Part shown: piece after piece, positions 3,079 to 39,026 of the stretch
Layout: each line of letters opens with the position of its first letter
Position numbering within the stretch: the first letter of the stretch is position 1
Source of the DNA: Candidatus Micrarchaeota archaeon
Lineage (GTDB): Archaea; Micrarchaeota; Micrarchaeia; Anstonellales; Bilamarchaeaceae
DNA: 64,000 bases
Direction: 5' to 3'
Assembly: GCA_043821365.1 (NCBI GenBank)
Contig: JBDRCX010000002.1
Span: 96,001-160,000, forward strand
Made by a program: the position numbers and the translations under genes
Notes under the pieces: model-generated
The model's input: only the letters and a program-made list of their open reading frames with translations
Told to the model about the DNA's origin: nothing
The model's database searches: none

Positions 3079-4065
3079 TTACAACGTCAAATCAATCTCC
3101 TTCTTCCCATTGACTAGCCAGACACCTTTTTTATCAGTTATCTTACCAATTATCCCAGCTTCTACGCCGTGCTTTTTGGCAATATTCATAACAGTGTCTG
3201 CTCTGTCTTCTGGTAGGATGATTGTCATTCCAATGCCCATGTTGAATGTTTTGTACATATCACCGATATTCGGTACTTTCTCGTGAAGTGCTTCAAAAAT
3301 GGGTTTTGGTTTTGGCATATCGGTAAGCTTAAATCCAACATTTTGATTCAACCTTGTTAGTTTTGAAAATCCACCACCAGTTATGTGTGCAATTCCATGC
3401 ACATCACAGGCATCAATAACCTCAGAAATAGTGCTGGCATAGATCTTCGTAGGGGTAAGCATGTCCTTTCCCCATTTCTTTATATCAAGTGCTTTTCTGG
3501 CAAGTGTATAACCATTGGAATGTATGCCTGAACTTTCAAGCCCGACGATTACATCTCCTTTTGTTATTTCATTCCCAAGAATAAGTTTTTTTACTCGCCC
3601 AACAACGGTAAACGTCAAATCAAATGGTCTTTTACCCTCCTTAATAATGTCTGGTACTATTGCAGTTTCACCACCAATGATCGCACATCCACTCTCCTCT
3701 GCTCCTTTCACAAGTCCATCCATTAACTCATTTACTAGTTCGTCATCTTCTTTTGCAAGTGCGATATAATCAACACCAACAAGTGGTTCTGCACCAACAC
3801 AGAGTATGTCGTTTACTGACATGGCAACAGCATCTATACCCACAGTATCATATATTCCAAGTTCTTGTGCAACTATTATCTTTGTTCCAACGCCGTCAGT
3901 ATGTATCACCAACTGTTGGTCACCGCACTTAAAGATCCCACCATAATGTCCAAATACTGGAACTGGTTCTCCATATCCCTTTCTGAATGAAAATGATGTT
4001 TTTATTTTATCCCATATGCTTCTTTGGATTTTCTTAACATGCCCTACGTCTATCTGATATTTCAT
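3079..4065 (-). CDS. purM: Phosphoribosylformylglycinamidine cyclo-ligase (AIR synthetase)
   Basis: TDGVGTK, VAMSVND, GGETA, SSGIHSNGY, HITGGG, FNMGIGM. Confidence 0.95.
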   Translation of the reverse strand: MKYQIDVGHVKKIQRSIWDKIKTSFSFRKGYGEPVPVFGHYGGIFKCGDQQLVIHTDGVGTKIIVAQELGIYDTVGIDAVAMSVNDILCVGAEPLVGVDYIALAKEDDELVNELMDGLVKGAEESGCAIIGGETAIVPDIIKEGKRPFDLTFTVVGRVKKLILGNEITKGDVIVGLESSGIHSNGYTLARKALDIKKWGKDMLTPTKIYASTISEVIDACDVHGIAHITGGGFSKLTRLNQNVGFKLTDMPKPKPIFEALHEKVPNIGDMYKTFNMGIGMTIILPEDRADTVMNIAKKHGVEAGIIGKITDKKGVWLVNGKKEIDLTL

Positions 4066-4176
4066 AAAATCAATTACGCTCCCGAGATTTAAAATCCATT
4101 TGCTTTTTTATACAATTTGATACTAACCTCATAGACCTAGCGATAGTTTATTAACTTTACTCGTATTATTTCTCTG

Positions 4177-4650
4177 ATGCGTTTTATCGGTGGATTTTTC
4201 CAATTTGCTCGACGTGTGATTGATGCAGCAAAAAAGGGTGGCCTTAGTGCCATAGATGTCAAAAAATTAGATAATCTACTTCTAAGAACCGGCAAAAGAA
4301 ACGCAATAGTTGCAAAAGGCATTTTAACTGCACTCAGCGCAGGGGGGGCAACTGATGCAGATGTTAAGCGTTTTGGCGAGCTTTTGCAATTGGCAGAAAA
4401 TAGAATAAGGGATGATAAAAATCCTTTCACAATTCATGATAAAACAGAGCTTACCTCAATTTTCAAAAGAGCATATATATCTGCAAAAACAGCAAGATGG
4501 TTCTCAGCGCAAATAGATGAATTGCTTGCAGAAGAAATAAACGAATTTATTTCTGGTTCTCAGAGGGTGGATGTCGGGATACCATCTAAAAAAATAGTGA
4601 AGTTTGAAAAAAATGAGGAAAAAGAAACTCAAAAAAAGGTCAAGACTTAG
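4177..4650 (+). CDS. Hypothetical protein
   Basis: 157-aa ORF filling the gap and followed after 3 bp by the next + gene; no recognised motif. Confidence 0.55.
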   Translation: MRFIGGFFQFARRVIDAAKKGGLSAIDVKKLDNLLLRTGKRNAIVAKGILTALSAGGATDADVKRFGELLQLAENRIRDDKNPFTIHDKTELTSIFKRAYISAKTARWFSAQIDELLAEEINEFISGSQRVDVGIPSKKIVKFEKNEEKETQKKVKT

Positions 4651-4653
4651 TTA

Positions 4654-5169
4654 ATGGGCTGGTTTTCAATGAAGGTGAAATTAAGTCCGGATCTTTCTTA
4701 TATTATAGGCCTTTGGCGTAAATCTCGTTGTAGTGATGGAATTGGAGTTAGGGGAAGTAAAGATCTTCTTGAAATTTTTTCTAAAGAAGTACTTGATAAA
4801 CAATTAATAACTCCTGATAAACTTCTTACCGGAGAAGATAAAGTTTATTTCTATCATACTGCTTACAGAAAATTTTTCCAACAAATAGAAGCCGAACAAC
4901 TCGAGCGTTTCAAGTATCTCAATGAATATGCAGCAAATTATATTGCAGGTATGTTTGATTCTGCTGGTAGTATTGACGATAGGGGAATAGTTTCGTTGTC
5001 ATGTGCAACCAAACAGGATGAGATAATGCTACTACGACTTGGATTTGTGACTAAAAGAAGAGCTGATTATCTTATTATGGAAAGACCCATAGTATTTTTG
5101 ACTTTTATAAAAAACTATGTTAAAATTTTTAAGGACCATAAGGTTTTTGATTACATAAAAAAGAACTAG
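4654..5169 (+). CDS. Stand-alone degenerate LAGLIDADG-like protein
   Basis: Two LAGLIDADG-like helices: LSYIIGLW and YIAGMFDSAGSI. Confidence 0.6.
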   Translation: MGWFSMKVKLSPDLSYIIGLWRKSRCSDGIGVRGSKDLLEIFSKEVLDKQLITPDKLLTGEDKVYFYHTAYRKFFQQIEAEQLERFKYLNEYAANYIAGMFDSAGSIDDRGIVSLSCATKQDEIMLLRLGFVTKRRADYLIMERPIVFLTFIKNYVKIFKDHKVFDYIKKN

Positions 5170-6134
5170 ATCTCGGGCATGTAGTTTAATTTCAAATTCT
5201 TTACCAATGAGTAATACCTGTACCTTCTGATGTCATTGGGAAATTTTGATTTGAAATTGTCCATCATTTCAGTAAATTTTTCAAAGCTTTCTATCTCGAC
5301 ATCAAATTCAAAATCACTTGTAACCATGCTTTTTTCAGTGTAAATTATGTTTGGGTGGGATAATACGTTCTCTTTTATCTGTTCTGCATTGTCAAATTTT
5401 CTAAACCAAAGATCAACTTTATAATATTCTTTTCCAAGAGCTCGAAGATTTAATATTGGTCTAAAACCTATTATCACTTTTTTTTCGATTAATTTTTTTA
5501 GGTGATATCTAACAGTGACAACACTTGTTTTCAATTTTTTTGCTATTTCAACCAATGAAGCGCGGGCATTATTTGCCAAAAACACAAGCAGCCTAAGGTC
5601 AATGGGATCTAATTTTTCTGGTTCGCTTTTTATTATTGTTGTGAATGTTAATTTCTCATTTGTATTTGATGGGAGGAGATAGGGTCTAGTAAATTCAAAA
5701 TATTCTGCCATAACTGAAAGGTGGTACTCTGCAAGATACTCACCAAATTTATTTTTAAAATTAAGCCAAAATTCCTCATATTCCCAAGGTGTTTTTGCCC
5801 ATGTTGCAAGTGCAATCTGGAAAGGTCCATTTACTCGATAAAATATTGAAATATTTTTTGAATTAATCAAATAATTCTCTATTTCTCTTTCTATTTCTGG
5901 TGATGTATTCTGCAGGCTTATGTAGGTTCTATATAAGGTAAAACCTAATTTTGAGAAATTCAATACAGTATAAAATCCAGATATTATATCTTTTTGCTGC
6001 AATTGTTTGATTCTATATTTGACAGTTTCTTTGGCTACTCGAATCTTTTTTCCAAGTTCACTATAGCTTATTCTTGCATTTCTATCTAATTCAGATAAGA
6101 TTTTTCTATCAATTAAATCAAGATCAGCCATCAT
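5166..6134 (-). CDS. Tandem (double) Lrp/AsnC-family transcriptional regulator
   Basis: Two HTH starts (DLIDRKILSELDRNAR; DPIDLRLLVFLANNAR), each followed by a RAM-like domain. Confidence 0.88.
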   Translation of the reverse strand: MMADLDLIDRKILSELDRNARISYSELGKKIRVAKETVKYRIKQLQQKDIISGFYTVLNFSKLGFTLYRTYISLQNTSPEIEREIENYLINSKNISIFYRVNGPFQIALATWAKTPWEYEEFWLNFKNKFGEYLAEYHLSVMAEYFEFTRPYLLPSNTNEKLTFTTIIKSEPEKLDPIDLRLLVFLANNARASLVEIAKKLKTSVVTVRYHLKKLIEKKVIIGFRPILNLRALGKEYYKVDLWFRKFDNAEQIKENVLSHPNIIYTEKSMVTSDFEFDVEIESFEKFTEMMDNFKSKFPNDIRRYRYYSLVKNLKLNYMPEI

Positions 6135-6961
6135 TCTGCCTCTTGCTCTTTTAAATATTCATCAAACTTTCCCATTAATTCAACAAGTTCTTTTGACGGT
6201 TTTCCGAATTCTATATCGTCTATCTTGTTTATCGGAACTATCCTACTTGAAGTGCTTGTAAGGAAAGCTGATTTGTACCCTTCCAAATCCTCTAATTTTA
6301 TCATCTCTTCTTTTACAGTGTAATTATTTTTCCTTGCTATCTCTATCACATATCTTCTTGTTACTCCATTCAATACCTCTTCTTCAGGTGCAGTTACTAT
6401 CGTCTTCCCATCAATGACAAAAAAATTAGTTCTACTTCCTTCAATTACATTGTTTTGTTTATCTACAAATAGCACATCATAACATCCTTGATTTTTAGCT
6501 TCAGAATAATATACATAACTCGGGAGCATATTCAATGTTTTTGCCTGAGGCATCCAACGTTCATATTTTTTTGTTAATGTTTTTACACCATCACGATATA
6601 ATTTTCTATCAATGAAATGCGGATTTAATGGCAAAATATAAAGGGTTGTATCTTTCTTTTGTTTAGCTCCCATCAACACCATTTTCAGATTAATATTAAT
6701 CTTCTGATCAGATAACTTTTGGATCAATTGGTTTATACTTTTACTAATATCAGTTTTGGAAAAACCATGTTCCATCCTTACCAAACTAGCAGAAGAAAAC
6801 AATCTTGTTATGTGCTCATCCAAAAAGCATGGTTTACTATTCTTTATTTTTATGTTTTCATATACTCCAAAACCATAGTTATGTTCAATATTGAAAAGAG
6901 AAATTACTGCTTCTGAGACCGGGCAAATCTTGTTATTTTTAATAAAATATTTCAATTCCAT
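6131..6961 (-). CDS. PLP-dependent class IV aminotransferase (D-amino-acid / branched-chain / ADC-lyase family)
   Basis: YGFGVYE, catalytic K in AKTLN, EGSRTNFF, LNGVTR, TSTSSRIVPI; 4-bp overlap with the Lrp gene. Confidence 0.88.
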   Translation of the reverse strand: MELKYFIKNNKICPVSEAVISLFNIEHNYGFGVYENIKIKNSKPCFLDEHITRLFSSASLVRMEHGFSKTDISKSINQLIQKLSDQKININLKMVLMGAKQKKDTTLYILPLNPHFIDRKLYRDGVKTLTKKYERWMPQAKTLNMLPSYVYYSEAKNQGCYDVLFVDKQNNVIEGSRTNFFVIDGKTIVTAPEEEVLNGVTRRYVIEIARKNNYTVKEEMIKLEDLEGYKSAFLTSTSSRIVPINKIDDIEFGKPSKELVELMGKFDEYLKEQEAE

Positions 6962-7080
6962 ACTTGCTATTTTTTATAAAATTATATAAAAAACTATCTT
7001 TTTTCGTAAAAATCTACTAATTAATTTAATATATATGAAATGCACAGATAAATTCACAAATTAACACAATTGGTGGGATA

Positions 7081-8148
7081 ATGAAGCTTCTATATTTTCA
7101 TGCAAAAGAGTTGCGAATTGAAGCAGGCATTTCAGGTAACCCAAGCAAACAAAGACAAACTGAACGGACTTTGCGCGAGCGTCTTGGCAATGCACTTCCA
7201 ATATTAGATACTCACAATAATCTAACTGAATCAAAAAACGCTCTTCTTGTTTTTGTCTGTGCAGAAAAAGAAGATGGTGTTCTTGATCTTACTAATATTC
7301 GTGATGATATACTAAAATCAAGAGCAATGCTCGGTGTAGATGACATTGTGCTTGGTGCATTTGGTCATTTAAGTGAAGAAACCGCTGATCCATTGTTAGC
7401 AAGAAGAATAATAGATGATCTTCTGAGTATGGTTCAATCCAGTTATCCGTCTACTAAATCATTCCCTTTTGGTTGGGACAAATCACTCGATATAAAGGTT
7501 CCATTACATCATTTTAATGCATCATTCAAGTCCTATGGAACTGGATTAGACTTTTGGAGTTCAGTTGCAACTCATTTTGATGAGTATATGCAAGAAACTG
7601 GTCACTATCATGCACAAGCAACATTGCTTAACAGGTTTTTTGAGTCAATGCCAAGTTCTCAAATACTTGATATCTGTTGTGGTGGAGGATTTGCCATACA
7701 TCATCTGACAAAAACCATTCATCCGGAGAATCAAGTTTTTGGTTTAGATAGTTCTGAAAAGATGCTTGAAATAGCAAGAAAAAGATCTAGTGGTAGTTTT
7801 ATTTGTGGAAAGGCAGAGTATTTAGATCTATTTTTCAATGGACATAAATTTGACGTTGTGCTTGCTATCAATGCAGTTGCATATGTTGATATGGTGTTGG
7901 TCCTATCAAGACTTCGTAAAATAATGAAGCCGGGATCGGGGTTTATTGTGATGGAAGAAGAGCCATTTATCTCTGGGTTTTCGATCCCATCAGACACAAA
8001 AATACCTGAAGAACTAAAATTAGCCCATCTAAGTATCAAGGAAATAGAAAAGTCTGTTATTCAGAGTGGTTTCAGGTTAATTGCCAAAACAGATAGTCCA
8101 ATAGATCAAAGGCACAGATTAGTTGGTTTAGCATTCCAATTAGTTTAG
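7081..8148 (+). CDS. Fusion: archaeal ThrRS-editing (DTD-like) domain + class I SAM-dependent methyltransferase
   Basis: N-terminal MKLLYFHA...LLVFVCAEKED...AFGHLS...PFGWDK parallels the editing domain of the adjacent ThrRS; C-terminal ILDICCGGG, GLDSSEKML, FDVV are MTase motifs. Confidence 0.8.
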   Translation: MKLLYFHAKELRIEAGISGNPSKQRQTERTLRERLGNALPILDTHNNLTESKNALLVFVCAEKEDGVLDLTNIRDDILKSRAMLGVDDIVLGAFGHLSEETADPLLARRIIDDLLSMVQSSYPSTKSFPFGWDKSLDIKVPLHHFNASFKSYGTGLDFWSSVATHFDEYMQETGHYHAQATLLNRFFESMPSSQILDICCGGGFAIHHLTKTIHPENQVFGLDSSEKMLEIARKRSSGSFICGKAEYLDLFFNGHKFDVVLAINAVAYVDMVLVLSRLRKIMKPGSGFIVMEEEPFISGFSIPSDTKIPEELKLAHLSIKEIEKSVIQSGFRLIAKTDSPIDQRHRLVGLAFQLV

Positions 8149-8176
8149 TGACAAAGTTCTGAAAAAACTGTCAATA

Positions 8177-8232
8177 TTTATAAACTTGCAAAACTATTTC
8201 TTTATGCTTTTTCTATAGAAAAGCTCAGGTGA
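8177..8232 (+). promoter_or_regulatory. Putative TATA box and Shine-Dalgarno of thrS
   Basis: TTTATAAA at 8177-8184 preceded by an A-rich tract; GGTGA at 8228-8232, 4 nt before ATG. Confidence 0.55.
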
Positions 8233-8236
8233 AATC

Positions 8237-10651
8237 ATGAGAATATTAACAATTCATGCAGATTACATAGAAGTAGAACCAATGAAGAAGGCAATAAAGG
8301 ATGCAGAAGAACTGAAGCATAAAGGAAAAGAAAGATTCGATGAAGTTCTTGTTGTATTTACTGCCGTAGAAAAAGATGATGATGAAAACAGTGGAGAAAG
8401 GCTTGCTAATGAGACAAAGTCAGTTGCTGATCAAGTCAAAACAAAAAAATTATTACTATATCCTCTTGTTCACCTAACATCAAAACCATCCTCTCCATCA
8501 CTTGCAAAAAAAGTTATGGCAAAAGCAGAATCAATCCTTAAAGAACAAGGATTCGAAGTTTCCCACTCTCCTTTTGGATGGTACAAAGGTTATACACTCA
8601 AGTGCAAAGGTCACCCACTTTCTGAACTATCAAGAGAGTTTTATGCTAGTGAAACAGCAGAAATATCTAAGGAATTAGTATCTGATAATAGCACATACAA
8701 AAAATTGATGGACTTTCTTAACCAAAATAAGGCCACCTACAAGCTTATTGATCATCCACCCGAGGGCAGAACAGCAATAGTAAGTAAGATGAGAGGCAAC
8801 CTGCTTTCTCAGGCAGCGCATTGTATAATAGTAATGATAGATGTTGGAAAGAACAAGAAGAAATATATTCTAGCTGTTGTTCCTGGGGATTCCAGAGTGG
8901 ATATGGACGCAGTCAAATTATTATTTAACGGTTCCTATGCCTCTTTTGCTGATAAGGAGACTGCTGAGAGATTATCTGGAAGTATCTCAGGAACAATCCT
9001 ACCGTTTACTTTTAACCAAGAACTAGAACTAGTGGTGGATCCGAGATTGTTGGAACATGATGAACTATTCTTTAATGCAGCCCGTTTGGATAAGTCTTTG
9101 ATACTAAAGTCAAGCGACTACAAACGCATTGCTAAGCCTACGATAAAGTCAATATCTGTGATTTCTGAGGAAGGAGAAAAAGATGTTAGCAATGCCTTTA
9201 AAGCCGAGAAGAAGCTTGTGTCGATTTTTCATATTCTTGACAGCGAGGGAGAAGTACACAAGATTGAATATGACAAGGAAAAGAAGAAATTTGCTGGTTT
9301 CGACTTCTCAAACCATGAGAACCTGAAGAAATTTGCATCATATGAGATGGCCAAGGATAGGGCAGTGAATGAAGAACCACCACACGTGGCTCTGATGAAA
9401 AAGCACGAACTGGTGGATTATGAGCCTGGTTCTGATCCTGGAAATCTTAGATATTATCCAAAAGGACGTTTCATGAAAGGTCTTATTGAGAGATATGTTA
9501 CCCAGGTTGTGAAGCAGAATGGTGGAATGGAAATCGAATCACCAATCATGTATGATTTTGAACATCCTTCACTGAAAAGCTATCTTAACAGATTCCCTGC
9601 AAGACAGTATACAATTGAAACGCCCAACAAAAAGGTGTTCTTAAGGTTTGCTGCATGCTTCGGTGGCTTCCTTATGGCACATGATACTAACATTTCCTAT
9701 AAGCAGCTTCCTGTGTGGCTCTACGAGCTTACTAGATATAGCTTTAGGGTGGAGCAAAGAGGAGAGCTGACTGGTTTGAGGCGGTTGAGGTCATTTACTA
9801 TGCCTGATTGCCATGCATTCTGCAAAGACGAGGGACAAGCAAAAGCTGAAATAATAAGAAGGTTTGAAATGAGTAGGGAAATGCAGAACAAGATGGGTAT
9901 AAATTCCAAAAACGATCTTGAATTCGCAATAAGGGTAACACGACAGTTTTATGAGAAAAATAAGGAATTTCTTGTCGATCTGGTGAAGCGGTGGGGCAAA
10001 CCAACACTTCTTGAAATGTGGGACGAACAGTTTTTCTACTTCGTATTTAAGTATGAATTTAATTTTGTTGACAATCTTGGCAAGTGTTCTGCACTTACCA
10101 CTGATCAAATTGATATCGAGAACGCAAAAAGATACGGAATTGAGTACGTTGACGAGAATGGAGAAAAGAAGAACCCATTAATATTACATCTTTCTCCATC
10201 TGGTGCAGTTGAAAGAATAATATATGCACTGCTTGAAAAAGCAGCATTTGATATGAAAAAAGGTAACGTCCCCAGCCTTCCATTGTGGCTATCGCCAACG
10301 CAGATCCGCATAATCCCAGTTTCAAAAGAGAAACATCTTAATTTCAGCGAAAAACTAGCAGAAAGAATTTCAAATATGGATATCCGAGTTGATGTTGATG
10401 ATCGAGATGAAAGCGTTGGTAAAAAGATACGAAATGCTGGCCAGGAGTGGACTCCTTATACCATTGTAGTTGGTGACAAGGAAATTGAGAGCCAAGATAA
10501 ATTTATGGTAAGGGACAGGGAAAATAACCAGGAAAGAGAAATGCACATTGAAGAGTTGGTAAAAACAATAAAAGAAAAAACAGAAGGAATGCCTTTTGAT
10601 ACTCTTCCACTTCCGAGGAACTTAAGCAAGCGAATTATTTTTGTTGGTTGA
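8237..10651 (+). CDS. thrS: Threonyl-tRNA synthetase, archaeal type, with inserted YbaK/YeaK(ProXp-y)-like domain
   Basis: Archaeal editing domain (PFGWYK, CKGHPLSELSR); core motifs YYPKG, RFAACFG, YELTRYSFRVEQRGE, LRRLRSFTMPDCH, GAVER; anticodon domain GKKIR; 804 aa because of the insertion at about 8690-9160. Confidence 0.95.
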   Translation: MRILTIHADYIEVEPMKKAIKDAEELKHKGKERFDEVLVVFTAVEKDDDENSGERLANETKSVADQVKTKKLLLYPLVHLTSKPSSPSLAKKVMAKAESILKEQGFEVSHSPFGWYKGYTLKCKGHPLSELSREFYASETAEISKELVSDNSTYKKLMDFLNQNKATYKLIDHPPEGRTAIVSKMRGNLLSQAAHCIIVMIDVGKNKKKYILAVVPGDSRVDMDAVKLLFNGSYASFADKETAERLSGSISGTILPFTFNQELELVVDPRLLEHDELFFNAARLDKSLILKSSDYKRIAKPTIKSISVISEEGEKDVSNAFKAEKKLVSIFHILDSEGEVHKIEYDKEKKKFAGFDFSNHENLKKFASYEMAKDRAVNEEPPHVALMKKHELVDYEPGSDPGNLRYYPKGRFMKGLIERYVTQVVKQNGGMEIESPIMYDFEHPSLKSYLNRFPARQYTIETPNKKVFLRFAACFGGFLMAHDTNISYKQLPVWLYELTRYSFRVEQRGELTGLRRLRSFTMPDCHAFCKDEGQAKAEIIRRFEMSREMQNKMGINSKNDLEFAIRVTRQFYEKNKEFLVDLVKRWGKPTLLEMWDEQFFYFVFKYEFNFVDNLGKCSALTTDQIDIENAKRYGIEYVDENGEKKNPLILHLSPSGAVERIIYALLEKAAFDMKKGNVPSLPLWLSPTQIRIIPVSKEKHLNFSEKLAERISNMDIRVDVDDRDESVGKKIRNAGQEWTPYTIVVGDKEIESQDKFMVRDRENNQEREMHIEELVKTIKEKTEGMPFDTLPLPRNLSKRIIFVG

Positions 10652-10788: not shown

Positions 10789-12618
10789 ATGATACAATTC
10801 TGCCCTATGGCGGGTAGGCTAGTCAGTGCTTTTGATGCAAGACCAAATTCAAAACAACGAAATATGCAATTTGATGGTGCACCACTAGTTGAAAGAAATC
10901 TTACTTTGGTTAATAGATTTGGTGAACAAAGGTCATTACGTGGTCTTGTTCCCTTGGGTATTGATAAAGTCGAAGAGGTTCAATTTATTCTTTCACAAAA
11001 CGGTGGTACCTGCAATATTGAAAAAGGAACCGGTGATCTATCAGAGTTTACGTGGATAAAAAGCATTGCATTAAGTGATGGGTTTACTGTTGCTGATTGG
11101 CTTCAAATAAGAAACAGAAGTATGGAATTTGAGATTGGCAGATTGAAAGACGGCCGTTCTTTTTGGGAGAATGCCAACACACTAAAAGTCAAAGAAGCAG
11201 GTGCAACTGTTATTACAGAAGATTATGGTATGACTGCAGAATTGCCTGATACTAGTGACATACTAAATGGAAAGAAAGCTTGCGGAGGTTGCGGAGGGGA
11301 CATGTCAAAAGATTCCCTTGAAGCTGCCAGAATTGCCATAAGATATGGTTGGGATAGGGATGAATTTTCTGTCAATCCTGATACAGGCGAAGTAAAAGAG
11401 CAAGCAAAATATGCTGATGGTCTTGCAATCTCTATTGATGTAACTCAAATAATTCCAGGCCCTAATAATCCTATTGTTCAAGATGTATATACAAAGTCTA
11501 ATGAGACTGGCGGGTTTGGAAATGGGTTATTAGTAAAATTACTTCTTAGTAGCCAATCTTCTGAAGAAAGCTTCAGAAACCAACCTGTTATATTAACCTC
11601 TCCAATACCAGTCACCCAGACTGATGTTCCAAAACCAGAGAAACAAATGTGTGAACAATACACACCAGAAGAGTCTATGATCTTACGTTTATTGATGAAT
11701 CCAACAGAAAGAAAATTATGGGGGCGTCTTTATGGTCTTCCTGATGATGAAGCTTCCCCTATTGTTCTTGAAAAACTCGTTCTACAATCCCTTCAAACAA
11801 TAAGAGCACCAACTCCACTATCAGTTCAACATCAAAAACAATTACCAACAAAGTCCCAAGATGAAGACAAACCAGTACAACAACCAAAACTCCCAAGATT
11901 AGTTTTCTCATCAATTAAAATAGATACAGAATCCAAACCACAAGAAGTTTCATCAAAACAAAAACATCCGGTGCAAGTCTCAACTCAACAACATTTTCAA
12001 AAACCAAAATCACCAGGAATAAAACAAAAACCAGTTAGAACTAAAACACCCAAGAAAAAACCAGTTTCTGAATTGGAATCAACAAGAACAAACAAAAAGA
12101 GGCATGAAATACGTGATGCCGAACCTACTGGAAAAATACCAAAATCAAGAAAGGCTCCAAAACCAGTTAGTCTGGATGAAGTAAAGGACGAAACTAAAAA
12201 ACCAAAAAGAAGAAAATCTACGAAGAAAACATCAGACGAGCTGGAATCTACTAAAAAACTATCAGATGAAAAGAAAAAAGCTAAAAAAAGAAAACACCCA
12301 GAACCAGAAATCGAAGGAATTCAAAAGAAAGAAAAAAAGGCAAGAAGAATCAAGAAACAGTTGGAATCACCAGAGCCTCTAAAGAAACAAAAAACCAAAA
12401 GAATAAATGATCAAATGGAACAAGATGAAAAAACCAGAAAAAAATCAAAGATCCATCATCCAGCAGCATCAAAAAGAAAATCGAATAATCCTAAAAACCA
12501 TACTTTAGCAAAGAAAAAAAGACGTAAAAAACGAGTTAGTCGCTACTATCTATTAGATATGCTTGGAGTTATAAATAAAAGAAAAAAATCTAATGGAAAA
12601 GTAGTGGTAAGAAATTAA
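10789..12618 (+). CDS. Hypothetical protein: globular N-terminal half, Q/P-rich linker, long Lys/Arg-rich low-complexity tail
   Basis: 609-aa ORF with a CGGCGG motif; last about 220 aa dominated by K/R/E/S/P. Confidence 0.7.
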   Translation: MIQFCPMAGRLVSAFDARPNSKQRNMQFDGAPLVERNLTLVNRFGEQRSLRGLVPLGIDKVEEVQFILSQNGGTCNIEKGTGDLSEFTWIKSIALSDGFTVADWLQIRNRSMEFEIGRLKDGRSFWENANTLKVKEAGATVITEDYGMTAELPDTSDILNGKKACGGCGGDMSKDSLEAARIAIRYGWDRDEFSVNPDTGEVKEQAKYADGLAISIDVTQIIPGPNNPIVQDVYTKSNETGGFGNGLLVKLLLSSQSSEESFRNQPVILTSPIPVTQTDVPKPEKQMCEQYTPEESMILRLLMNPTERKLWGRLYGLPDDEASPIVLEKLVLQSLQTIRAPTPLSVQHQKQLPTKSQDEDKPVQQPKLPRLVFSSIKIDTESKPQEVSSKQKHPVQVSTQQHFQKPKSPGIKQKPVRTKTPKKKPVSELESTRTNKKRHEIRDAEPTGKIPKSRKAPKPVSLDEVKDETKKPKRRKSTKKTSDELESTKKLSDEKKKAKKRKHPEPEIEGIQKKEKKARRIKKQLESPEPLKKQKTKRINDQMEQDEKTRKKSKIHHPAASKRKSNNPKNHTLAKKKRRKKRVSRYYLLDMLGVINKRKKSNGKVVVRN

Positions 12619-38037: not shown

Positions 38038-39026
38038 TGGAAAAATTAATAAAAATAGACATAAAAGATCGCAAAATTCTGCGAGAACTAGATATGAATG
38101 CCAGGATAAACATCAAAGATTTGGCCAGACGTGTTGGTCTCTCTAGACAGGTTGTCCAATATAGGATTGACAGGATGAAGAACACTGGTTTATTACTGGG
38201 GGCAGTTACTGTTTTTGATTCTGCAGTTGTTGGACAACGGTGGTTTAGGGTTGCGATACAACTTCAAAAAATAACAAAAGAAAAGAAAAAAGAATTCATC
38301 TCTTATTTTGAAAAACACCCAAATGTTTTATGGCTTGGGGAAGTTGGTGGCAACTGGGATTTTGTTATAAATTTTGTAATTAGCGATCAATTCACATTCA
38401 ATCAAATTTTCGAAAAAATGCTTGAAGATTGGGGGGCATTTGTAAAAAAATACGAAATTCTTACTTATATAAATGTACGAGATCAGGCAAGGCGGTACGT
38501 CCTCCCAGACTACCAAATAAAATATACCGAGTTTTTCCATGCGATGAAGAATGATAGAAATGTAAAACTTGATGAGCTTGATAAAAAACTCATCCAACTT
38601 TTAGCTAAAAATGCATGGCTATCAGCATCTGAGCTTGGAAATAAACTTGGTGTAAATTATAAAACAATACAGGAAAGAATAAAAAAATTAGAAAAGGCAA
38701 ATGTCATACTTGGTTATCGTTTGATTTCCCATCCAAGAATGCTTGGCTATGAATCTCATATGATTTTCCTCGGAATCCAATCATATAGGCCAGATTTGGA
38801 AAAACAACTCTACGAGTTTCTTAATCATCCAAATGTTACTTTTTTAGTAAAACACCTTGGTCTTTGGAGGATTGGTATGGAAGTTGAAGTTTCATCTTCT
38901 AAAGAATTCCAAAATTTTCTTATAGAATTACGAACAAGATTTGGTGATTTGATATCAACCTACGAAACATTTCCAATATTCCATGATCATTTATTTAATT
39001 ATTTTCCAGATGGTGCATTAAAATGA
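38037..39026 (+). CDS. Tandem (double) Lrp/AsnC-family transcriptional regulator
   Basis: Two HTH starts (DIKDRKILRELDMNAR; DELDKKLIQLLAKNAW); same architecture as 5166-6134. Confidence 0.88.
   Translation: MEKLIKIDIKDRKILRELDMNARINIKDLARRVGLSRQVVQYRIDRMKNTGLLLGAVTVFDSAVVGQRWFRVAIQLQKITKEKKKEFISYFEKHPNVLWLGEVGGNWDFVINFVISDQFTFNQIFEKMLEDWGAFVKKYEILTYINVRDQARRYVLPDYQIKYTEFFHAMKNDRNVKLDELDKKLIQLLAKNAWLSASELGNKLGVNYKTIQERIKKLEKANVILGYRLISHPRMLGYESHMIFLGIQSYRPDLEKQLYEFLNHPNVTFLVKHLGLWRIGMEVEVSSSKEFQNFLIELRTRFGDLISTYETFPIFHDHLFNYFPDGALK

Follow-up and report, generated by a model that had tools for sequence, protein, structure and literature searches.

Cells defend themselves against mistranslation mainly by means of the editing domains of aminoacyl-tRNA synthetases and the free-standing paralogues of these domains. 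ATD sets the precedent of a DTD-fold paralogue with retuned specificity, and CtdA, the canavanyl-tRNA deacylase, that of an accessory deacylase devoted to one non-protein amino acid. To our knowledge, the paralogues studied so far (ATD, ProXp variants and CtdA) each guard against a specific, previously unappreciated error, and we know of no stand-alone trans-editing factor with a methyltransferase or membrane domain joined to it, or with an Lrp-type regulator dedicated to it. The gene considered here lies at 7081..8148 on the forward (+) strand of a 64,000-nucleotide stretch of a Candidatus Micrarchaeota archaeon contig (JBDRCX010000002.1, positions 96,001 to 160,000; hereafter the window). 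It encodes a protein of 355 amino acids (aa), P0001, in which an editing-like domain, paralogous to the N-terminal editing domain of archaeal ThrRS, is fused to a class I S-adenosylmethionine (SAM) methyltransferase. As a small editing-domain paralogue that would clear a particular mischarged tRNA, the protein is comparable with DTD, ATD, DTD2, AlaX, YbaK/ProXp and CtdA.

A synthetase-derived module and a class I methyltransferase also meet on one substrate in SerRS-assisted m3C32 methylation by METTL6/Trm140, where a specialised RNA methyltransferase relies on the complete SerRS to bind the body of the tRNA; in the Micrarchaeota protein, by contrast, only a 3'-end-recognising editing domain is present, and the methyltransferase is optional and small-molecule-like. 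The crenarchaeal ThrRS-2 (A. pernix ApThrRS-2, a Ser-tRNA(Thr) hydrolase) likewise carries an N-terminal domain (NTD) of the ThrRS type apart from the aminoacylation core, and acts in trans (PMC4491819). ThrRS-2 has an anticodon-binding domain, a canonical pocket and an essential housekeeping role, whereas the fusion protein has a methyltransferase instead and is encoded by an accessory gene; its score against the NCBIfam ThrRS-2 family, NF011500 (E 3e-7, 29.7 bits), falls far under the cut-off of 362.

In the parent ThrRS NTD, seven side chains lie within 6 Å of the scissile bond, and mutation impairs deacylation only at His83 and Lys121 (H83A and K121M), while Y120A, E134A and the Y120A+E134A double mutant retain activity and specificity (PMC4491819). 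Catalysis is tRNA-assisted, relying on the 2'-OH of A76, and the deacylation assays were run with the isolated editing domain (PMC4491819). A literature search found no paper on the combination of tRNA-Thr_ED with a methyltransferase, nor on trans-editing in DPANN archaea, in agreement with the sequence-only reading of the window, which knew of no characterised protein of this architecture.

The fused gene and its two domains

The open reading frame (ORF) begins with ATG, and its product contains both Pfam domains above cut-off. Residues 1-155 (7081..7545, +) form the editing-like domain, placed in the DTD-like fold by Pfam, Foldseek, a map onto P. abyssi numbering and a 31-sequence alignment, and residues 156-355 (7546..8145, +) the methyltransferase, identified through Pfam, alignments, PDB sequence and fold matches and atlas neighbours. 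This is the architecture that the sequence-only reading had proposed from the letters, including the intact DICCGGG of motif I. It had also raised the possibility that the fusion was an assembly or frameshift artefact, which is now ruled out. More than 15 fused homologues are present in independent assemblies; full-length ones of 36–59% identity come from NCBI, JGI, ENA and Logan, and an exhaustive profile search added others. A biofilm metagenome run made independently (X2) also yields a contig that matches 7253-8104 exactly, with no indel, and so covers the domain junction at 7545/7546. The fusion is thus confirmed as a genuine protein architecture. The NCBI label of one homologue reads 'methyltransferase domain-containing protein', and nothing more. 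An AlphaFold2 model of the protein, built on ten family members, has a mean predicted local distance difference test score (pLDDT) of 85.7 and a predicted template modelling score (pTM) of 0.63, with a linker pLDDT of 65-68.

The N-terminal half matches tRNA-Thr_ED (PF08915) at residues 44-148 (E 1.7e-14, 54.5 bits against a cut-off of 30.2), as do all relatives. It aligns to the adjacent ThrRS by BLASTP with 22% identity over 104 residues (E 7e-6), and the paired motifs that had first suggested this kinship (MKLLYFHA/MRILTIHA, FGHLS/LVHLT and PFGWDK/PFGWYK) are all present, as is the segment VPLHHFNASFK in the place where ThrRS has CKGHPLSELSR. The expectation that the domain would model as a DTD-like fold was borne out: by Foldseek, the AlphaFold2 model superposes on the solved editing domains 1Y2Q and 2HL1 (P. 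abyssi), 4RRF (M. jannaschii) and 4RR6 (A. pernix) with a template modelling (TM) score by target of 0.83-0.88 and a root-mean-square deviation (rmsd) of 1.9-3.8 Å. In a maximum-likelihood tree, the editing-like domains and the canonical editing domains of the same genomes fall into separate clades (support 100/99), and their identity is 19-23%; the editing-like domain is therefore an old paralogue and not a recent copy of the neighbouring thrS.

To compare individual residues, P. abyssi numbering was carried via the window's own ThrRS onto an alignment of 28 editing-like and three canonical domains. H96 and K134, which correspond to His83 and Lys121, do not vary among the 28 editing-like and three canonical sequences. 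Phe81 is kept as F94 and Phe117-Gly118 as F130-G131 in the window protein, and the P-F-G-W backbone segment (residues 116-119), which forms an RNA-protein interface in the parent, is near-invariant among the 28. An N-terminal His, the Glu/Asp of the VEK-D segment and His130 are also common to both groups, and conservative swaps occur at Pro80 (to Ala) and Ala82 (to Gly or Ala). The amino-acid pocket differs: Tyr120 is replaced by Asp (D133; Asp in 26/28 editing-like sequences, otherwise Glu or Ala), the cross-subunit Glu134 is lost, its aligned residue A147 being a variable small residue within the new segment VPLHHFNASF, and a new invariant motif, P141-x-H143-H144, has appeared. The paralogue thus retains the residues known to matter for hydrolysis while exactly the two side chains that contact the amino acid are changed, and the remodelled pocket suggests a different specificity.

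A further departure from the canonical NTD is a family-specific insertion at residues ~16-50 (7126..7230, +), which exceeds the corresponding loop of canonical editing domains by about 15 residues. By alignment and DSSP of the model it contains a K/R/Q-rich, basic helix at 21-38 (pLDDT 87-88), which might serve in tRNA binding. The domain therefore shares with the archaeal ThrRS NTD its DTD-like fold, its Pfam match and the equivalents of His83, Lys121, Phe81 and Phe117-Gly118, but differs in its low identity, the exchange at Tyr120, the loss of Glu134, the PxHH motif, the longer basic-helix insertion and the lack of a synthetase core; Pfam finds neither tRNA-synt_2b nor HGTP_anticodon in the fusion protein, the C-terminal half of which is methyltransferase. 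It is best called a distinct paralogous subfamily rather than a ThrRS editing domain proper, because the profile match, the fold and the key residues agree with the latter, whereas the Tyr120/Glu134 pocket signature (the WYK and HPLxELS motifs) and the linkage to synthetase and anticodon-binding domains are missing. An editing-domain homologue that lacks a synthetase core and keeps the hydrolysis residues has the features of a free-standing trans-editing factor, and a free-standing form is plausible because the isolated parent domain was used in the deacylation assays (PMC4491819).

Residues 193-293 of the C-terminal half match Methyltransf_25, 31, 11 and 12, all four above the Pfam cut-off (E 7e-15 to 1.8e-10). 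Motif I is LDICCGGG at 196-203, in which C200/G201 do not vary; strand 2 ends with the acidic D223, and the G221-x-D223 stretch is invariant in 10 to 14 family members. The remaining invariant residues are specific to the family (W159, G174-H175-Y176, Q179, N264, Y268, E293-x-P295-F296, I341-D342 and H345), and give it a signature of W..GHYxAQ ahead of motif I, EExPF, and IDxxHxL at the C-terminus. The top PDB sequence matches are ToxA (5JDZ), PH0226 (1VE3) and TM1389 (2AVN), at E 3e-12 to 2e-10, followed by CouO/NovO and then by phosphoethanolamine, sugar-amine and peptide N-methyltransferases; the best ones are small-molecule N-, C- or O-methyltransferases. Hen1, a 3'-terminal ribose 2'-O-methyltransferase, is among the weaker matches (E about 5e-7). 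The fold matches are 3E8S, UbiG (5DPM) and Bud23 (TM by target 0.68-0.72), and the closest atlas clusters are stand-alone class I enzymes of ~200 aa (structural TM 0.75-0.84).

The domain thus shares best sequence matches, fold and intact SAM motifs with small-molecule class I enzymes (ToxA, PH0226, TM1389, UbiE/BioC/NodS-like), but it reaches no curated cut-off, and has its own signature and its own fusion partners. No NCBIfam family was above cut-off for the fusion, for its stand-alone methyltransferase relatives or for the other fusions, and the RNA-related matches fall far short (RlmA-type 32 vs 303 bits, CmoA 19.6 vs 193). Pfam found no RNA-binding accessory domain (THUMP, PUA, TRAM or similar) in the fusion protein. 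An assignment as tRNA methyltransferase on the basis of the top Foldseek matches to TrmN, Trm14 and aTrm11 was rejected, as these superpose with a whole-chain rmsd of 21-22 Å and reflect a two-domain coincidence. On these comparisons, the methyltransferase resembles small-molecule enzymes rather than tRNA methyltransferases, and nothing in it marks an RNA methyltransferase.

Beyond the fusions, the same GHYxAQ/IDxxHxL family includes ~200-aa stand-alone proteins. Two metagenomic members, P0059 (516 aa) and P0061 (483 aa), join this methyltransferase to a C-terminal AlaE (L-alanine exporter, PF06610) membrane domain, which hints that the methyltransferase family may act on exported small molecules, such as amino acids.

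Family architectures and the conserved gene pair

Comparison of ~20 loci with a long-type editing-like gene revealed three architectures. The gene is fused to the methyltransferase in the window and in L001, L002, L004, L022, L024 and L030; it encodes a stand-alone protein of 157-178 aa, with stop codons confirmed, in L009, L012, L013, L015, L016 and L017; and it is fused to a four-transmembrane (4-TM) domain, here called X, in L007, L014, L028, P0019 and P0062. The closest relative of the window locus, L012, has an N-domain 68% identical and the same neighbours, including thrS, but encodes a 158-aa protein without methyltransferase, whose stop lies only ~100 nt from thrS. As this protein and that of the window form one clade (support 98/94), the methyltransferase was lost or gained at least twice, and on the tree the methyltransferase-fused forms are intermingled with the X-fused ones. 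No close, separately encoded homologue of the methyltransferase was found in five genomes that have a stand-alone editing-like gene, a single-protein query giving weak generic matches only (E 1e-4 to 1e-6).

A divergent 'short' type of ~324 aa, without the insertion, with Lys121 kept and position 120 variable, fuses both domains as well (P0025, P0030, P0034 and others), so that the fusion of an editing-like domain with a methyltransferase is seen in at least two very divergent subfamilies. In the short-type locus L008 the two are separate genes with a stop/start overlap, ATGA, as would be classic for two subunits produced together. At L021:1519-3744, the P0025 short-type fusion has a GNAT acetyltransferase 15 nt before it and another methyltransferase, of UbiE-like type, after it, all three on one strand, a gene set that looks like a small-molecule modification operon.

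All hits with names belong to Micrarchaeota. The editing-like gene is present in 2/121 genomes of a phylum-wide sample and 8/31 genomes of the window's family, and was not found in six other searched genomes of the window's genus; this patchy distribution marks an accessory module and not a housekeeping gene. As defined by sequence comparison, this is a conserved, patchily distributed and previously undescribed family of Micrarchaeota with a diverged ThrRS editing-domain paralogue at its core. The data point to the editing-like domain as the constant, autonomous unit, to which the methyltransferase and X would be interchangeable or additive accessories.

The near-constant companion of the editing-like gene is a tandem (double) HTH_AsnC/Lrp-type regulator, which in the window is a 322-aa protein encoded at 5166..6134 (-). 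A regulator of this type (315-338 aa) is divergent from the editing-like gene in 19/20 long-type loci, L016 being the exception, while the downstream genes all differ. Divergent adjacency was seen in L001, L002/3, L004, L007, L009/10, L012-L015, L017, L022, L024/25, L028 and L030, and adjacency by coordinates in G128, G130, G141 and G143. Regulator orthologues are 49-79% identical, and hence more conserved than the fusion protein, and the top orthologue group (E below 1e-145) adjoins the editing-like gene in 7/8 genomes.

Proteins of this tandem double-helix-turn-helix (HTH) type (~320-350 aa) are expanded in these archaea, with 10 copies in this 1.2-Mb genome (G000; for example at window 5166-6134, window about 38049-39008, C6:299655-300608 and C6:102129-103040) and as many as 19 in relatives. 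Among the transcription factors of these reduced genomes, this family may be the dominant one.

Between the divergent genes lies a 119-nt control region (6962..7080, without strand) with two A/T-rich TATA-like boxes, a central CTTTCAYTTTTTGCAAA-like element and a ATCAGAAnTAACACA element just before the start codon. Aligned over 13 loci, this intergenic region (94-121 nt) has a mean column identity of 67%, against only about 25-68% identity between the flanking fusion proteins, and it is a candidate operator of the regulator. A genome-wide scan for the intergenic motif was uninformative because near-matches are too many in an AT-rich genome, and a predicted complex of the regulator with editing-like residues 1-156 scored 0.00, which counts neither for nor against binding. 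The spacing varies in two of the loci: in L017 (715-1039) the regulator and the editing-like gene have between them, after the conserved promoter region, a gene for a ~100-aa predicted membrane protein, and in L015 (4306-4800) the two are separated by a spacer of ~490 nt.

Domain X is a new family of helical membrane proteins with four transmembrane segments, about 176-180 aa long, with the motifs KKEWVKLN and QQ...IFIPxFN. Besides its fusions, X is encoded on its own: in L002 (5463-5996) its gene lies 4 nt upstream of that of the fusion, in L024 (5950-6492) it overlaps the 3' end of the fusion gene, in G141 it follows directly downstream, and in the window's own genome (C6:638902-639384; L026:1429-1959) it is unlinked to the fusion gene. 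Among the 31 genomes of the family sample, X is present in 3/8 with an editing-like gene and 0/23 without, a co-occurrence that is suggestive only because the genomes share kinship. Taken with the fusions, X thus appears to be linked to the editing-like module. A word-based homologue search with X recovered X alone, Pfam gave no match at E up to 10, and its AlphaFold2 model (pLDDT 85.5) has no atlas match above TM 0.44 by query. The candidate identity of X as an AlaE-type exporter was rejected: atlas features gave a 0.81 lead to the AlaE cluster, which is within chance range, and hhalign against the AlaE regions of P0059/P0061 returned a probability below 1%, in addition to the missing Pfam match.

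Readings of function

The reading preferred here, tentatively and with the balance of probability still somewhat against it, is that of an accessory, regulated aminoacyl-tRNA deacylase whose partner domains methylate and/or export the released amino acid. The editing-like core would bind a 3'-terminal aminoacyl-adenosine ester, for which the CCA end of a mischarged aminoacyl-tRNA is the likeliest candidate, and would hydrolyse this ester in trans by the tRNA-assisted chemistry of the parent domain, the changed pocket conferring another specificity. The tandem Lrp/AsnC-type regulator would set expression through the shared control region, as the conservation of that region suggests. The fused methyltransferase or X would act on the aminoacyl moiety or the freed amino acid, and not on the tRNA body, and methylation and/or export would keep the amino acid from re-activation.

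A trans-acting deacylase is proposed because the hydrolysis residues persist, the aminoacyl-adenosine end is what this fold acts on, the parent domain has been used in isolation in trans in vitro, and precedents exist. The partners would handle the released amino acid, given that the methyltransferase is small-molecule-like, that X is a membrane protein, and that an amino-acid exporter domain is joined to some of the methyltransferase's relatives. From such comparisons we infer the deacylase activity and what it acts on, how the regulator functions, and that the methyltransferase and X serve in 'disposal'.

Several points weigh against this proposal. The deacylase activity itself is read from sequence and structure comparison, and loss of the cross-subunit Glu134 could mean loss of the canonical dimeric site. 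The AlphaFold2 model has no confident fixed interface between the editing-like and methyltransferase domains (pTM 0.63; linker pLDDT 65-68), and the C-domain is a class I SAM methyltransferase outside every curated family tested. To spend one SAM on each edited amino acid is costly, which renders the scheme implausible where the amino acid is as abundant as serine. The need for an extra deacylase is unexplained, since the genome already has the ThrRS NTD, a YbaK-type domain and DTD2, and with 10-19 tandem-HTH regulators per genome, the neighbouring regulator is uninformative as to an amino-acid ligand. Finally, the X fusions would call for a membrane-anchored tRNA deacylase, for which we know of no precedent.

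In its altered pocket, its dedicated transcription factor and its physical coupling to a methyltransferase or membrane protein, the family represents a new branch of the DTD-like/NTD fold. If hydrolysis is indeed followed by methylation or export, proofreading would be coupled to disposal of the offending amino acid, which would fit host-dependent DPANN archaea that import most amino acids.

Two other readings are unlikely, though each accounts for features of the family. In the first, the editing-like domain would be a pseudoenzyme that senses or scaffolds (an amino acid, an adenosine metabolite or uncharged tRNA), and controls the methyltransferase or membrane protein or signals to the regulator, with no hydrolysis. 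Replacement of both amino-acid-contacting side chains of the parent, the new invariant PxHH, the tight pairing with a transcription factor and the fusions to non-enzymatic membrane domains are all consistent with such a role. However, the deacylation-critical His83 and Lys121 are invariant in 28/28 sequences, the parent enzyme can do without the residues that are replaced (PMC4491819), and the divergent gene pairs fit a regulator and its target better than a complex.

The second, similarly doubtful, holds that the module is an accessory cassette for resistance to, or use of, a small aminoacyl-ester or aminoacyl-nucleoside that imitates the end of aminoacyl-tRNA (a toxin, antibiotic or metabolite), which the N-domain would bind or cleave, the methyltransferase modify, X transport and the regulator sense. 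Methyltransferase and membrane protein are a typical detoxification pairing, and the dedicated regulator, the accessory-like spread (2/121 and 8/31 genomes) and the GNAT acetyltransferase and second methyltransferase around the short-type fusion in L021 would suit a cassette; moreover, the parent domain binds free aminoacyl-aminoadenosine analogues in crystals (PMC4491819). Yet no candidate compound or biosynthetic cluster was found nearby, X has no detectable transporter homology, and the known members of the fold all act on aminoacyl-tRNA.

The sequence-only reading had proposed that the N-domain delivers tRNA-Thr to the methyltransferase, and this is not supported: the editing-like domain is constant and autonomous, L012 has no methyltransferase, thrS is adjacent only in three relatives, and the methyltransferase is small-molecule-like. 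In its broader form, this idea makes the editing-like domain a non-hydrolytic clamp of the acceptor end of tRNA(-Thr) or of aminoacyl-A76, with the fused methyltransferase modifying the tRNA (for example its terminal ribose or base) or the esterified amino acid. Conservation of the adenosine-binding backbone and of the His/Lys pair would be explained, as would the weaker match to Hen1 (E about 5e-7) and the adjacent thrS in the window, and the fusion and the translational coupling in L008 show that both domains work on something in common. A clamp is nevertheless rather improbable, given that the methyltransferase is missing from many family members, including the closest (L012), with no close homologue elsewhere in those genomes by the query used, and that thrS adjacency is limited to three close relatives. 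It is further disfavoured by the lack of an RNA-binding accessory domain and of any tRNA/rRNA methyltransferase family above cut-off, by nearest relatives that are small-molecule enzymes and AlaE fusions, and by the rmsd above 20 Å of the TrmN, Trm14 and aTrm11 matches, which merely reflect two-domain chains.

Very unlikely, although it would constitute new enzymology, is that this is the first aminoacyl-tRNA-directed methyltransferase, with a pocket (Asp for Tyr120, no Glu134, PxHH) that holds aminoacyl-A76 unhydrolysed while the esterified amino acid or the terminal ribose is methylated, to yield a regulated modified aminoacyl-tRNA or blocked tRNA end.

Neighbouring genes

As the sequence-only reading had it, the fusion gene lies directly upstream of thrS (8237..10651, +), which starts 88 nt 3' of it and encodes an 804-aa ThrRS. 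This adjacency is confined to the three closest relatives (window, L004 and L012); in other loci, UbiX/UbiD/AcnX, convergent GatB/GatA/AspRS, a phosphoribosyltransferase, PurM or others lie downstream. The thrS linkage is an accident of synteny in one lineage, outside the conserved module. The window ThrRS carries two editing modules ahead of its class II core, by Pfam: the canonical NTD (residues 1-134) and an inserted YbaK-type tRNA_edit domain (PF04073, residues 199-297, E 2.7e-16). The same arrangement is seen in the L004 ThrRS (7158-9977, 939 aa), and the L012 ThrRS (745 aa) has no PF04073 match. A role for the paralogue as simple stand-in for a missing D-aminoacyl-tRNA deacylase was rejected, DTD2 (PF04414) being present; no DTD (PF02580) turned up in the genome, which is 87% complete.

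Between the regulator and the control region, at 6131..6961 (-), lies a class IV aminotransferase of the branched-chain/D-amino-acid type (Pfam Aminotran_4, E 5e-48). It is present only in the window, L004 and L012, and is therefore lineage-specific.

Two adjacent small ORFs in the window (4177-4650, +, 157 aa; 4654-5169, +, 171 aa) have no Pfam match, and L004 has ORFs of similar size, also without Pfam matches (3123-3590 and 3610-4110), likewise between purM and the regulator. Right after thrS, at 10789-12618 (+), the window contains a 609-aa ORF without a Pfam match, the C-terminal ~250 residues of which are extremely lysine-rich and of low complexity; in L004 (10062-12059), the same position is occupied by a 665-aa ORF, again without Pfam matches.

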